64,000 bases of DNA from a candidate division WOR-3 bacterium (lineage in GTDB: Bacteria; Hydrothermota; Tepidihabitantia; Tepidihabitantales; DTDR01): contig JBDRVN010000002.1 of the NCBI GenBank assembly GCA_039801885.1, forward strand, positions 2,057-66,056, written 5' to 3'. The notes beneath the pieces were generated by a model. It made no database searches. It worked only from the letters and a program-made list of their open reading frames with translations, and was not told the origin of the DNA. The translations under genes and the position numbers were made by a program. Below are positions 9,724-61,367 of the stretch, piece by piece (the stretch's first letter is position 1; each line of letters begins with the position of its first letter).

Positions 9724-10017
9724 ATGGCAATTGTTGATATGAGTGTTGTGCCAATTGGCACTAACACACCTAGTGTTAGTAAGTTTGTAAAAGAAGCGGT
9801 TGAAATTATCAAAAAATCCGGTCTAAAATATCAGGTAAATCCAATGGGAACAACAATTGAAGGCGATTTAGTTAAAATCTTTGATTTGGTAAAAGTAATT
9901 CATCAACATTTCTTCGTTCTTGGTGCCCAAAGAGTATTAACAACTATTAAGATCGACGAGCGAATTGATAAATATCAAACAATGGAAGATAAAGTAAAAA
10001 AAGCCTTAGGTGAATAG
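9724..10017 (+). CDS. MTH1187/YkoF-family small protein (DUF77)
   Basis: 97 aa. It reads MAIVDMSVVPIG...NPMGTTIEGD, which is the ferredoxin-like MTH1187/YkoF signature. SD aaaaggagg lies upstream. Confidence 0.7.
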   Translation: MAIVDMSVVPIGTNTPSVSKFVKEAVEIIKKSGLKYQVNPMGTTIEGDLVKIFDLVKVIHQHFFVLGAQRVLTTIKIDERIDKYQTMEDKVKKALGE

Positions 10018-14825: not shown

Positions 14826-15702
14826 AATTTCTTTAGGAATAGATATCGGTGGTACAAATCTTAAAATCGGCTTAGTAAAAAATAATAAAATTATAAAGAA
14901 AGGAATTTTTAAAACTGAAAAAAATTTTGATAATCAAAGATTTGGTGATTATTTAATTAAAATTATGGAGAAGTTTATAAAAGGTTATAAAATAGATAAA
15001 ATTGGTATCGGTATTGCTGGTTATGTTTTTTATGAAAAAGGGATATTAAAATTTTCGCCCAATTTACCGAGATTAAAAAATTTTCCTTTAAAAAAGATTA
15101 TTGAAAAATATTTTCAAGTTGAAACTTCTGTTTTAAATGATGCCGATGCAATGGTAATTGGTGAATATTTTTATCATAATAAAAGATATAAAAACTTGAT
15201 AACAATAACTTTAGGAACCGGTGTGGGTAGTGGAATTATTTTAAATAATAAATTACTTTTTAATAGTGAGTTTGGTCATACGATATTAATTCCTAATGGT
15301 TATTTATGTTCTTGTGGCAAAAAGGGTTGCGTGGAAAGCTATTTAGGAAGTTATGGAATGTTAAGGATAGCAAAAGATTTTTATAAAAAAGAAACAAAAG
15401 ATTTAACACCCCAAAAAATTTATGAGATGGCAAAGAAAAAAGATAAAAAAGCGTTAAAAACAATTGAGAGATATTCTTATTATTTGGCGATTGCTTTAAG
15501 TAATTTAACAAACTTATTTAATCCGGAAATAATTATATTAAATGGCGGAATAAGTAATATGGGAAGTTTATTGTTAAAATTTATAAAACCAATATTAAAA
15601 GAAAATATTTTTTATTTACCAAAAATAAAAATTTCCAATTTAAAAGATATTGCGGGAATTATTGGTGCGGTTAATTTTTTAAGGTTTGGCGGAGGTGGGT
15701 AG
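14803..15702 (+). CDS. ROK-family sugar kinase (glucokinase-like)
   Basis: It has the LGIDIGGTNLKIG ATP-binding motif and the ROK zinc motif CSCGKKGCVESY. The last about 16 nt overlap tRNA-Sec on the opposite strand. Confidence 0.8.
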   Translation: MKRKDQYKISLGIDIGGTNLKIGLVKNNKIIKKGIFKTEKNFDNQRFGDYLIKIMEKFIKGYKIDKIGIGIAGYVFYEKGILKFSPNLPRLKNFPLKKIIEKYFQVETSVLNDADAMVIGEYFYHNKRYKNLITITLGTGVGSGIILNNKLLFNSEFGHTILIPNGYLCSCGKKGCVESYLGSYGMLRIAKDFYKKETKDLTPQKIYEMAKKKDKKALKTIERYSYYLAIALSNLTNLFNPEIIILNGGISNMGSLLLKFIKPILKENIFYLPKIKISNLKDIAGIIGAVNFLRFGGGG

Positions 15703-15781
15703 GAATCGAACCTACCACAAGCCTTTTGGGCTTGCGAGCGGGTTTGAAGCCCGTCAGGCACACCAGCACCCATCCACCTCC
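15687..15781 (-). tRNA. selC: tRNA-Sec (selC), anticodon UCA
   Basis: The minus-strand read is 95 nt. The 8-bp acceptor GGAGGTGG pairs with CCACCTCC. The anticodon loop is CTTCAAA, which is UCA. The long variable arm has a 6-bp stem, caagcc with ggcttg. The T-arm is GGTTCGATTCC. The discriminator is G and a CCA is encoded. The architecture matches E. coli selC. Confidence 0.8.
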
Positions 15782-34543: not shown

Positions 34544-34621
34544 ATATATAAGATAAAATTGCTCTTTGAAAATTTGGGAAGTGTGCCTTGAATGAAAAAT
34601 AGTCCCTTATAATTTTTCGCA

Positions 34622-36183
<1,562 letters not shown>

Positions 36184-36335
36184 TTACGAGTTATCTTTCA
36201 TTCAAGGCACGCTTCTTTTTTTATTTTTTATAAATATTTTTTTCTTTTTATCTCAAAATTAAACCCCACCTTTTAAAAGTCTTTTAAAAAATTATTTTTA
36301 TAAATTGACTTCTTTGGAAATATCTTTTAAAATTA

Positions 36336-46818: not shown

Positions 46819-47136
46819 TTATTTACCTTTTAACAGAAGAAAATACAACTCCTTTAATACCTCCTTTTCCAATTTATTTCTTACCATTTCTTTCTTAATG
46901 AGATTTTCAACTTCTTGTAATCTTCTTTTCTTTATCAATTTGTATGCCCTTCTTAGAAAGTTAAGATAACCCAAATAAAAGGTTTCTTGAATAGGATAAT
47001 TCTTCAAAATTTCCTTCAACTTCTCTTCGTATTTTAAGAGCTCTTTCATTTGGTAATAATATTTATAAGTTGATTTTGGGTATTCACAACCGAAATTAAA
47101 ATAGTATTTACTCACCCTTTTCTTTAGTTTTCTCAT
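46819..47136 (-). CDS. Small uncharacterised protein, paralog family member C
   Basis: 105 aa. It reads MRK..+R.+KYY...EYP...FYLGYLNFLRRAYKL. It overlaps the upstream paralog B by 4 nt (ATGA). Confidence 0.5.
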   Translation of the reverse strand: MRKLKKRVSKYYFNFGCEYPKSTYKYYYQMKELLKYEEKLKEILKNYPIQETFYLGYLNFLRRAYKLIKKRRLQEVENLIKKEMVRNKLEKEVLKELYFLLLKGK

Positions 47137-47495
47137 AAGATAATACCAAACAAATCAATCCTTAATTTTTCCATAATCTCTTTATTCAAGCCCTTTGCTT
47201 CCCATTTACTTTCACTAATCGCAACAAGTTTATAAAGCATAATCCCCGAATATTTATTAGTAAGCCGCCAGATTTCCTTCGCATAAGAGAAATAAAATAC
47301 ATATTGGGTAGGTATTGTTTCCGGATGGGTGTCTAAGATAGTCTTTATCTTGGTATCCAGTGCCGCAAGTTCACCATATTTTTCAACAATATTCTCAATC
47401 ATCTGCTCTTTTAGACTTTCATATCTTTTCTTATTAATTTCTGGGTCTAATTTTGCGATATACTTATTAACTCTTTGATAAGCGTTTCTTACCAT
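47133..47495 (-). CDS. Small uncharacterised protein, paralog family member B
   Basis: 120 aa. The block RVNKYIAKLD...IPTQYVFYFSYAKEIWRLTNKY is clearly homologous to ORF 22259..22606. Confidence 0.5.
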   Translation of the reverse strand: MVRNAYQRVNKYIAKLDPEINKKRYESLKEQMIENIVEKYGELAALDTKIKTILDTHPETIPTQYVFYFSYAKEIWRLTNKYSGIMLYKLVAISESKWEAKGLNKEIMEKLRIDLFGIIL

Positions 47496-47650
47496 AATAT
47501 CCTCCTTTTTATTTATTTTCCCTTACATATATATAACGAAAAAGAAGGGCAAAAGGTTACCACTTTTTTTAATATTGACTTTTATCAATTTAATTTTATA
47601 ATTTATGATATTGAGGGAAAAATTTTTGCTCTTTGGCAATTGGGTTAAGA

Positions 47651-47769
47651 CTTTTTTGATTAAAAAGAAATTGCGACATTATTAGAATATATAGAGAAGG
47701 GAAAAAACCGCGATGTTTATTCTGAATAGTCAAAATCTATTCCCTGATTAAAAAGGGATTGCGACATAG
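47651..47769 (+). repeat. Direct repeats gattaaaaag(a/g)(a/g)attgcgacat (x2) upstream of the RHH gene; a third partial copy is downstream at about 48058-48090
   Basis: Read directly. The first copy is gattaaaaagaaattgcgacat at about 47651-47675. The second is gattaaaaagggattgcgacat at about 47745-47768. The downstream copy is agtcaaaacttttcccctaattaaaaagggat, about 26 of 32 identical to the second upstream copy. Confidence 0.6.
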
Positions 47770-47803
47770 AATTAACAGATTTGATTTTAAAATGGAGGTG
47801 AAA

Positions 47804-48016
47804 ATGGCAAGAAAGTTATTTAGTTTATATTTTGATGAGGATATTTATAATAAAATAGTTGAGTGGGCAGAAGGGATAGGGATTTCACGAGCGAGATTGA
47901 TTAATGTAGTTTTCAACTTCATATTCGGACGGGCAGGAATAAAAAATGTAATTAATGATAAAATATATGAATTATGTAAAAAGGCAATTGAAGAATATGA
48001 AAAAATACAGAAATAA
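47804..48016 (+). CDS. Ribbon-helix-helix (CopG/Arc-like) small DNA-binding protein
   Basis: The predicted pattern is a beta strand followed by two helices (KLFSLYFDEDIYNKIVEWAEGIGISRARLINVVFNFIF). The strong SD ggaggtg precedes the ATG at 47804. The ORF-track start at 47759 lacks an SD. Confidence 0.55.
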   Translation: MARKLFSLYFDEDIYNKIVEWAEGIGISRARLINVVFNFIFGRAGIKNVINDKIYELCKKAIEEYEKIQK

Positions 48017-48229
48017 GGAGAAATGATGCAGCAAGGTGTGGTTCTCCATCAGTCAAAACTTTTCCCCTAATTAAAAAGGGATCGGTGGTTTAAATCGAAA
48101 TTTGGAATGTGAAAAAAGAGAAAAATTATTAATTCTTATTTCCACATTTGCTAAACTTTTCCTGATAAAAAGGTTTAATTTTCTTGCTATTGATATTTTC
48201 TAAAAATTGATTATATTTTAATCTAAAGG

Positions 48230-48316
48230 AGAGGTGTCCGAGTGGACGAAGGAGCACGACTGGAAATCGTGTGCACACCCAAAAGGTGTGCCGTGGGTTC
48301 GAATCCCACCCTCTCC
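48230..48316 (+). tRNA. tRNA-Ser (anticodon GGA)
   Basis: The acceptor ggagagg pairs with cctctcc. The anticodon loop is ctGGAaa. The long variable arm is gcacacc caaaa ggtgtgc. The T-arm is gtggg ttcgaat cccac. Confidence 0.8.
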
Positions 48317-48335
48317 GTAAATTTTTATTTATTAA

Positions 48336-58098: not shown

Positions 58099-58115
58099 TA
58101 AAAGAAGCGGCGCCT

Positions 58116-61124
<3,009 letters not shown>

Positions 61125-61150
61125 TCCGCTTCTTTTATAAAATTCTTAAC

Positions 61151-61267
<117 letters not shown>

Positions 61268-61367
61268 AGTTTTTGTTTTTTAACCTTAATTAATTTAAAA
61301 TTAAGTAAAATTTTTAAAATTTATAAATCATTGAAAAATAAGAAATTAAATTAATAAAAAAATTTTT

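Follow-up and report, generated by a model that had tools for sequence, protein, structure and literature searches.

What kind of element separates a conserved gene pair from a tRNA-Ser(GGA) gene in the chromosome of a candidate division WOR-3 bacterium is the question raised by positions 47496–48316 of the 64-kb stretch of DNA analysed here (the window, to whose positions all coordinates refer unless a contig is named). The region contains an open reading frame (ORF) of 70 codons with a strong Shine-Dalgarno (SD) sequence, set among related direct repeats. An earlier note had read it as an island-like cassette linked to the tRNA gene, in which a ribbon-helix-helix (RHH) protein of the CopG/Arc kind would bind the repeats as its operators. 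The observation behind that reading is real, and its interpretation is only partly supported: an accessory block with partly foreign, phage-derived DNA is indeed present, whereas neither the operator mechanism nor the tRNA-island mechanism is supported. Positions ~47575–48183 are very probably the decayed stump of a type III-A CRISPR locus, one of whose spacer slots is filled by a 286-bp fragment of a phage genome.

The repeats provide the entry to this account. Upstream of the ORF, the two copies of TGATTAAAAAG(AA/GG)ATTGCGACAT reported previously lie at 47657–47679 and 47745–47767 and agree at 21 of 23 positions; their separation, given as 94 bp, measures 88 nt from start to start. The third related copy is also present, with 27 of 32 identities between 48051–48082 and 47728–47759 (the estimate had been ~26 of 32), and a fourth, partial copy at ~48150–48183 had been overlooked. 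These four repeats are designated R1 to R4, and the segments between them S1 to S3. R2 (47729–47765, plus strand) is an intact 37-nt CRISPR repeat, GTCAAAATCTATTCCCTGATTAAAAAGGGATTGCGAC, in which a CCCT/AGGG hairpin is followed by the 8-nt handle ATTGCGAC; its predicted fold has an energy of −7.7 kcal/mol. In CRISPR repeats processed by Cas6, the last 8 nt become the 5′ handle of the CRISPR RNA (crRNA), and the layout of R2, with the hairpin first and ATTGCGAC after it, is that of such repeats. Rfam gives sub-threshold but full-length matches to three CRISPR-DR models exactly on R1 and R2, with CRISPR-DR32 and DR35 as the models that match R2. The full 37-nt R2 has no other copy in the window at up to three mismatches, and a match arises in none of 100 shuffles.

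A metagenome scan for two adjacent ...AAAGGGATTGCGAC ends recovered at least 120 genuine arrays. Their repeats are 36–37 nt long and share the architecture of R2, with up to 29 of 37 positions identical among the matches listed; some arrays carry the 23-nt CCTGATTAAAAAGGGATTGCGAC exactly, and periods in the repeat family are 70–80 nt. The two closest listed arrays with flanking genes stand beside Cas10/Csm1 and RAMP genes, or beside Cmr2/Cmr3. The repeat core yielded no arrays in representative genomes, where it gave one chance match in a coding region and one solitary copy, and the viral collection contained no match to the core or to a pair of adjacent repeat 3′ ends. A solitary family-like sequence, GTCTTGACCCTTATTAAAAAGGGATTGCGAG, was seen in a Poribacteria metagenome-assembled genome (MAG; JASMLX010000114.1, L002 2548–2579), with no other copies in the 600 nt inspected. 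What decisively identifies the repeats is synteny with sister genomes.

Genomes with an LL-diaminopimelate (LL-DAP)-type aminotransferase at least 90% identical to that of the window show two forms at this site. In Form B (the sister genomes L143, L145 and L147), an array is followed by cas6-cas10-csm2-csm3-csm4-csm5-csm6 and then by the tRNA-Ser, aminotransferase, aspartokinase and ScpB genes that the window also has. The array repeat, CTCAAAATCTCTTCCCTGATTAAAAAGGGATTGCGAC, to which R2 is identical at 35 of 37 positions, occurs in at least 21 copies in L143 and at least 17 in L145 (the contigs start inside the array); spacers range from 40 to 57 nt, and the terminal repeat ends in ...GGGATTGGTTA. 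From 48178 onward, the window flank is 93.7% identical to L143. Form A (L132, L137–139, L142 and L144, of the same population) has TamB, PriA, a lipoprotein gene, a 105-aa gene and a 120/128-aa gene, after which a lone, degenerate remnant of a repeat, GGTTACCACTTTTTTAATTCAGATTGTGGC, and another ~370 nt precede the tRNA-Ser; the Form A site has neither array nor cas genes. Solitary remnants resembling R1 (..AATTCAAATTGCGAC and ..AATTCAGATTGTGGC) occupy the same place in L126, L127, L132 and L137–139. In the more distant L128–130 (~78% nucleotide identity), the region upstream of the 120-aa gene joins the tRNA-Ser promoter directly, and window positions ~47607–48187 have no counterpart, in keeping with the earlier reading of the block as an accessory, island-like one. 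Three states are found at this one site, namely nothing, a stump and a full CRISPR-Cas locus. The window locus is the orthologue of the Form B locus, and its repeats, judged by sequence and gene order, belong to the type III-A CRISPR system native to the lineage. A tblastn search with the seven sister Cas proteins found no cas genes in the 64-kb window.

Mapped onto the sister array, the stump can be followed from its promoter side to the tRNA gene. A sigma-70-like promoter, TTGACT-16-TATAAT (11/12; 47575–47602, plus strand), stands 38 nt upstream of R1, where a leader promoter would be expected to act; positions 47573–47606 also align to the single tRNA-Ser promoter of L128. R1 (47641–47677, plus strand) is a truncated, hybrid repeat, of which only the 3′ ~22 nt (TGATTAAAAAGAAATTGCGAC) are repeat-derived; its 5′ part duplicates a local motif, GGTTAnnACTTTTTT, that also stands at 47555, and it has kept the handle and lost the hairpin (−2.4 kcal/mol). 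S1 (47678–47728, plus strand) is a 51-nt spacer, within the range of the sister arrays. No protospacer was found for it, a scan of the viral collection being empty, and neither S1 nor S3 is an anti-cas spacer. Beyond R2 and the 286-nt S2 (47766–48051, plus strand) lies R3 (48052–48088, plus strand), which has kept the hairpin, lost the handle and degenerated at its 3′ end (GGGATCGGTGG); because the terminal repeat of the sister arrays shows the same kind of 3′ degeneration, R3 is taken as its orthologue. R2 and R3 are 84% identical and have unique flanks. A promoter-like site upstream and a degenerate repeat at the far end are both seen in the stump; look-ups of 120-aa homologues, made to compare the leader of an intact sister array, yielded array-less forms only.

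The right-hand end of the stump preserves what are probably traces of the operon's deletion. The trailer (S3; 48089–48149, plus strand) is colinear with the sister region between the terminal repeat and cas6, minus ~100 nt, and contains an imperfect inverted repeat, AATGTG...CACATT (noticed by eye and unscored), where the sisters carry a gene or remnant of the 23S_rRNA_IVP type. R4 (48150–48183, plus strand), a partial repeat (GCTAAACTTTTCCTGATAAAAAGG...), aligns to the partial repeat before cas6 and to the repeat-like sequence after csm6. The trailer alone aligns weakly, its score being reached by 27 of 500 shuffles; for trailer and R4 combined, which are colinear with the sister pre-cas6 and post-csm6 regions, the score is reached by none of 500 shuffles. 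The alignments that take in R4 have 59/82 and 61/80 identities, the latter between R4 plus the sequence beyond it and the degenerate repeat-like sequence downstream of csm6, and R4 is the probable junction of a cas-operon deletion. In L143, the two sister sequences are a partial CRISPR repeat at 1897–1950, just upstream of and adjoining a promoter-like TTGACT...TATAAT before cas6, and a degenerate repeat-like sequence at 9815–9850 after csm6. Partial repeats that bracket the operon in this way are likely substrates for its deletion.

S2 is of phage origin and runs from repeat edge to repeat edge. By blastn, 47768–48028 is 77% identical to three contigs (L003, L004 and L005), and the alignment extends to ~48049; the match begins 2–3 nt past the end of R2 and stops 2–3 nt before R3. 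The insert, in sense orientation relative to the phage genes, opens 38 nt ahead of the 70-aa ORF, takes in that ORF entire and breaks off after codon 10 of the phage endolysin. The ORF (47804–48016, plus strand) lies where the earlier note had placed it, with the SD sequence GGAGGTG, and is the orthologue of the phage gene immediately upstream of the endolysin. The mini-ORF MMQQGVVLHQSKLFP* directly after it (48023–48070, plus strand) is likewise present: ten of its codons are the 5′ end of the Amidase_2/endolysin gene, and the last five codons and the stop come from R3. Its product, MMQQGVVLHQ..., corresponds to MMWWEGVVIHH... of the phage amidase before the frame enters R3 and stops. The mini-ORF is the cut-off start of a phage gene and not a designed leader peptide. 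No further phage-like segments were found in the window.

One of these phage contigs, of 42 kb (L003, JAWAYW010000001.1), was deposited in an Aenigmatarchaeota MAG. Among its genes, all co-oriented, are those for an Amidase_2 endolysin (PHROG lysis, E=1e-20), for a Dam methylase and for two helicases, SNF2 and MCM. On the strength of these phage hallmarks, with a peptidoglycan amidase among them, of its targeting by a WOR-3 spacer and of the presence of a related fragment in a WOR-3 array, the contig is probably a WOR-3 phage that was mis-binned with Aenigmatarchaeota. The spacer in question, L143_sp11 (identical to L145_sp10; 47 nt), matches the same contig at 33/37 positions (E ~8e-7) and is antisense to the phage genes, the orientation required of functional type III spacers. 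Because this spacer, shared by L143 and L145, matches the contig, the phage family is a real target of the lineage's CRISPR system. Between the window and phage copies of the ORF, dN/dS is 0.17 with a dS of ~0.9, and the amidase starts differ by one in-frame codon; both features indicate divergence in working phage genomes and so to transfer from phage to host.

Whether the 70-aa ORF encodes an RHH protein is a separate matter. Among 5.8 billion clustered proteins, it has one homologue (P0002, 76% amino acid identity), which is encoded on the 42-kb contig and two related contigs. An exhaustive phmmer search returned only this phage homologue and low-complexity matches, the viral collection and INPHARED gave no match, and no copy was found in other bacterial genomes; the conservation on which the earlier note had staked the RHH gene is not seen, as the ORF is absent from all bacterial relatives and known only from this MAG and the phage. 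The N-terminus, KLFSLYFDEDIYNKIVEWAEGIGISRARLINV, fits the RHH pattern, and it resembles CopG, Arc and MetJ in its strand-like KLFSLYF stretch, helix, G-I-S turn and second helix. It differs from them in an extra C-terminal helix of ~28 aa, in profile hits below the gathering score (Pfam RHH_3, E=0.049, 14 bits against a cut-off of 21.6; RHH_5, E=0.12, 12.6 bits against a cut-off of 26) and in an all-helical model with no fold match. That model, of the monomer (AlphaFold2, predicted local distance difference test score 71.6), found nothing in Foldseek at E<0.6. A PDB profile search and PHROGs likewise returned nothing for the protein, and the phage orthologue matches no RHH model. The first 33 residues align without gaps to CopG, with a pairwise E of 0.011. 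The RHH assignment is plausible and unproven.

The size of S2 is what makes the stump unusual. Spacer length has its median at 39 nt and its 99th percentile at 50 nt in the 2,274 spacers of the arrays listed in the metagenome scan, and the maximum in sister arrays is 57 nt, against 286 nt for S2. Most other long gaps in the listed arrays are ordinary, reflecting missed repeats, boundaries between separate arrays or insertions of the 23S_rRNA_IVP type. The gaps in L085 and L055 were ruled out as analogues because they are boundaries between separate arrays, and those in L110 and L019 because they are 23S_rRNA_IVP-type insertions with inverted repeats of their own. One true analogue is found among the listed arrays, in L013 (Ga0123519_10247272, minus strand, 375–773), where 362 nt lie between two perfect repeats, GTAGGAAACTTGACCTCATTTAAAAGGGATTGCGAC, of a 7-repeat array. 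In this segment, in sense orientation to the repeats, an ORF of 61 aa is complete and has an SD sequence, and the ORF that follows is cut off after its start; the 61-aa ORF has no homologues in the viral collection, PHROGs or INPHARED. Orphan and degraded arrays are ordinary, but a gene-sized spacer with an intact gene is unusual, having this one analogue and no published description in the full-text literature searched.

Genes of the 23S_rRNA_IVP type (PF05635, a four-helix bundle) deserve mention in their own right, as several arrays of this repeat family contain one or have one at the trailer end. The sites are L110 4337–4805, L145 1493–1858 and L019 3112–3274 (minus-strand coordinates), to which window 48104–48149, with its imperfect inverted repeat, corresponds; the copy in L110 was recognised by sequence only, and in L110 and L019 the inserts are bounded by GC-rich inverted repeats. 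Such arrays seem to be preferred by these elements.

The history very probably begins with a full locus that stood, as in the sister genomes, between the conserved 120-aa gene and tRNA-Ser(GGA). The ~8-kb cas operon, from cas6 to csm6, has been lost, most likely when its two flanking partial repeats recombined, and the array has shrunk to a truncated R1, S1, R2, S2, the terminal R3, the trailer and the partial R4. S2 could have entered by Cas1–Cas2 integration of a long, untrimmed prespacer, or by a double crossover in which phage DNA recombined with two neighbouring phage-derived spacers and the intervening repeat or repeats were erased. Either route would yield the phage sequence observed, which reaches from edge to edge with no old spacer left over, and the present evidence cannot separate them; in relation to the first route, the loose spacer length of the lineage, 40–57 nt, hints at a permissive ruler.

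Such a history has partial parallels. Orphan arrays that persist after cas loss are a known phenomenon (PMC8616872), and repeat-like sequences, noted in excess on the flanks of type III operons, have been judged to be degraded repeats (Shmakov et al., 10.1101/2023.03.03.530964). Like orphan and degenerate arrays (the E. coli I-F CRISPR4, for example, or degraded type III mini-arrays), the stump has partly degenerate repeats that match the system of its relatives, no cas genes, and partial repeats that flank the cas operon in those relatives; it is unlike them in that 286 bp, with a phage ORF in full, take up one of its slots and that no anti-cas spacer was found. With canonical type III-A arrays, such as those of Thermus, it shares repeat length, the position of the hairpin, the ATTGCGAC handle, the length of S1 and spacer content from a targeted phage, but S2 is ~6x any normal spacer of the lineage and sense-oriented, and the cas genes are gone. 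Of the usual marks of an array, a repeat that matches a known system, a hairpin and handle (in R2) and spacer content derived from a mobile element (in S2) are present; regular spacing, disrupted by the length of S2, and associated cas genes in the window are not.

As for its present state, the stump most likely has no function and is a fossil, given that cas genes are lacking locally, that R1 and R3 are damaged and that the ORF occurs in one MAG only. A type III crRNA processed from S2 would retain only the first ~35–45 nt after the handle, which are sense to the phage mRNA and could not pair with it, and would thus be of no use in recognising transcripts of this gene. Incidental expression of the ORF from a read-through transcript is plausible if the promoter fires, as SD sequence and ATG are intact; such expression would be a by-product.

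Several observations sit uneasily with a decayed array. An intact ORF behind a strong SD sequence and a good upstream promoter has the look of a selected, expressed gene, and a second CRISPR-Cas locus with the same repeat, elsewhere in the MAG than the 64 kb covered here, could process the transcript. The structure is known from the assembled contig alone, and an assembly error is conceivable. The known phage is only 77% identical to S2, so that the boundaries are good to ~2–3 nt. R1 is a hybrid, and the 88-nt periodicity of its surroundings (47555, 47643 and 47731) points to an extra, leader-side local duplication. The sister contigs begin within the array, and the ancestral form of R1 and of the leader is therefore a reconstruction.

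S2 might instead be a domesticated phage regulator, kept in the array because the pre-crRNA driven by the leader promoter doubles as an mRNA for an RHH-like protein that blocks related phages or regulates the host. Consistent with this proposal are the intact ORF and strong SD sequence, the co-oriented 11/12 promoter that lies 200 nt upstream, the sense orientation that expression needs, the dN/dS of 0.17 and the occurrence of the same structure in L013, inside an apparently healthy array. Yet sense orientation has a prior of 50% in each case, the dN/dS is accounted for by phage divergence before capture, and no DNA-binding family is confirmed for either the 70-aa ORF or that of L013. The restriction of the ORF to one MAG, the visible decay of the array around it and the ends of the fragment, which cut into neighbouring phage genes as those of a random fragment would, make domestication unlikely. 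The same can be put more generally: arrays might occasionally capture whole phage genes, with the pre-crRNA, transcribed constitutively, as their mRNA, and thereby give the host Cas-independent, repressor-type protection against, or control over, related phages, in which case the window and L013 would be two instances of an undescribed, recurrent route of capture. We regard this proposal, too, as improbable. L013 also bears on the suspicion that phage reads were mis-joined between CRISPR repeats, which is prompted by the difficulty of assembling CRISPR regions and by the presence of phage and host DNA in one sample. An independent contig from another dataset has the same architecture; moreover, R2 and R3 differ at 16% of positions and are each flanked by unique sequence, the junctions coincide precisely with the edges of the repeats, and the only known phage differs from the fragment by 23%, so that a mis-assembly is barely credible.

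Other proposals ascribe the arrangement to the phage, to a small RNA or to the ORF product. Integration of a temperate phage into CRISPR repeats, with remodelling of arrays, has been demonstrated (Varble et al., 10.1101/2020.10.09.333658), and recombination through the solitary repeat units of phages has been proposed (PMC8616872). On these precedents, S2 could stem from a counter-defence insertion, by integration into a repeat or by recombination via a phage-borne repeat, that was later mostly deleted. Prophage phiAP1.1 in the type II-A CRISPR repeats of S. pyogenes, along with spacer-mediated recombination between phages and arrays, is similar in that phage DNA is bounded by repeats and the array remodelled; it is dissimilar in that the window holds a 286-bp internal fragment, with neither a prophage nor an attachment-site (att) or integrase signature. 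The fragment is contiguous and spans the regulator–lysin junction instead of fused prophage ends, no repeat-like sequence was found in the 18.8 kb retrieved of the 42-kb contig and no integrase among its called genes, and the viral collection is devoid of the repeat core and of adjacent repeat 3′ ends; a phage-driven insertion is very unlikely. A mini-array of the CreTA/CreR kind, in which a crRNA-like RNA from R1–S1–R2 guides repression of the divergent 120-aa gene, is suggested by two degenerate repeats around a spacer-sized segment beside a small conserved gene, by R1-like remnants kept next to that gene in several relatives and by complementarity of S1 to its upstream region (16/19, 47516–47534). 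That complementarity is not significant, being reached by 24 of 300 shuffles, and leaves the 5′ seed unpaired; R1 has lost its hairpin, cas genes are absent from the window, and the relatives keep a single remnant repeat only. Known Cre systems are of type I or type V, and mini-arrays flanking type III operons have been judged degraded and non-functional (10.1101/2023.03.03.530964). CreTA/CreR/crlRNA mini-arrays, viral mini-arrays and solitary repeat units do share with the stump two or three degenerate repeats outside a full array, but here there is no significant target and no effector gene, the ‘spacer’ is a coding, gene-sized one and the setting is a host chromosome, all of which render this proposal highly improbable. 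The autoregulatory RHH cassette of the earlier note draws on the RHH-like N-terminus of the ORF product and on the fact that RHH proteins bind tandem repeats. The flanking repeats are nevertheless explained as CRISPR repeats and not as operators of the ORF: they pre-exist in 17–21 copies per array in sister genomes that lack the gene, and the phage homologue has no such repeats around it; the gene lies between repeats only because it came with the insert that occupies the spacer slot. Its supposed link to the tRNA fails as well, as set out below, and hardly any credence is left for the cassette as a whole.

The tRNA-Ser(GGA) gene does follow the block, at 48228–48317 (plus strand), behind a promoter-like site, TTGATA-16-TATATT (48190–48217, plus strand), that is conserved in all relatives. 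On the right, it is the conserved neighbour of the CRISPR-Cas site; it is no att site. Presence/absence polymorphism among relatives is a trait that the block has in common with tRNA-targeting integrative islands; unlike these, it stands 5′ of the tRNA, on the promoter side, and the window has a single copy of the 25-nt tRNA-Ser 3′ end, with up to three mismatches allowed, and no att-like duplication. Pfam scans, limited to six neighbouring ORFs, found no integrase. A candidate island does lie on the classical 3′ side of the tRNA in L128 (2209–5811; also in L129 and L130), where 3.6 kb absent from the window separate the tRNA-Ser 3′ end from the aminotransferase gene and encode a 319-aa ORF and an 843-aa CHAT/Peptidase_C14 protein.

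On the other side, the conserved left-hand neighbour, outside the element, is a pair of WOR-3 genes of 105 and 120 aa with no assigned function (46819–47495, minus strand), whose paralogy, if any, is very remote (E=0.005 over 30 aa). The 120-aa gene is present in two copies in GCA_025060715.1, with a small ORF after each (of 81 aa in L130 and of 105 aa in L131), and elsewhere it occurs in contexts with ParA/ParB or a P-type ATPase; a ...ATTGCGAC remnant is still attached upstream of it in L126 and L127. Farther away in the window, the 16S rRNA gene (34618–36184) is ~22 kb from the 23S–5S genes (58114–61268), an unlinked arrangement of the rRNA operon, a selenocysteine tRNA (tRNA-SeC) gene lies at 15687–15781, and several listed ORFs that overlap rRNA genes are spurious.

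For annotation, the region is to be treated as a CRISPR remnant and not as an RHH/operator cassette or a tRNA island. It documents polymorphism within a lineage at one chromosomal site, with footprints that suggest a route by which the cas operon is excised, and the insert, together with the sister spacer, links the 42-kb phage contig to candidate division WOR-3. Array finders read long gaps such as S2 as breaks between arrays, and events of this kind are therefore probably under-counted. If such inserts recur, they would bear on how strict the adaptation ‘ruler’ is or how frequently phage DNA recombines with spacers, and on CRISPR arrays as possible entry points for expressed foreign genes.

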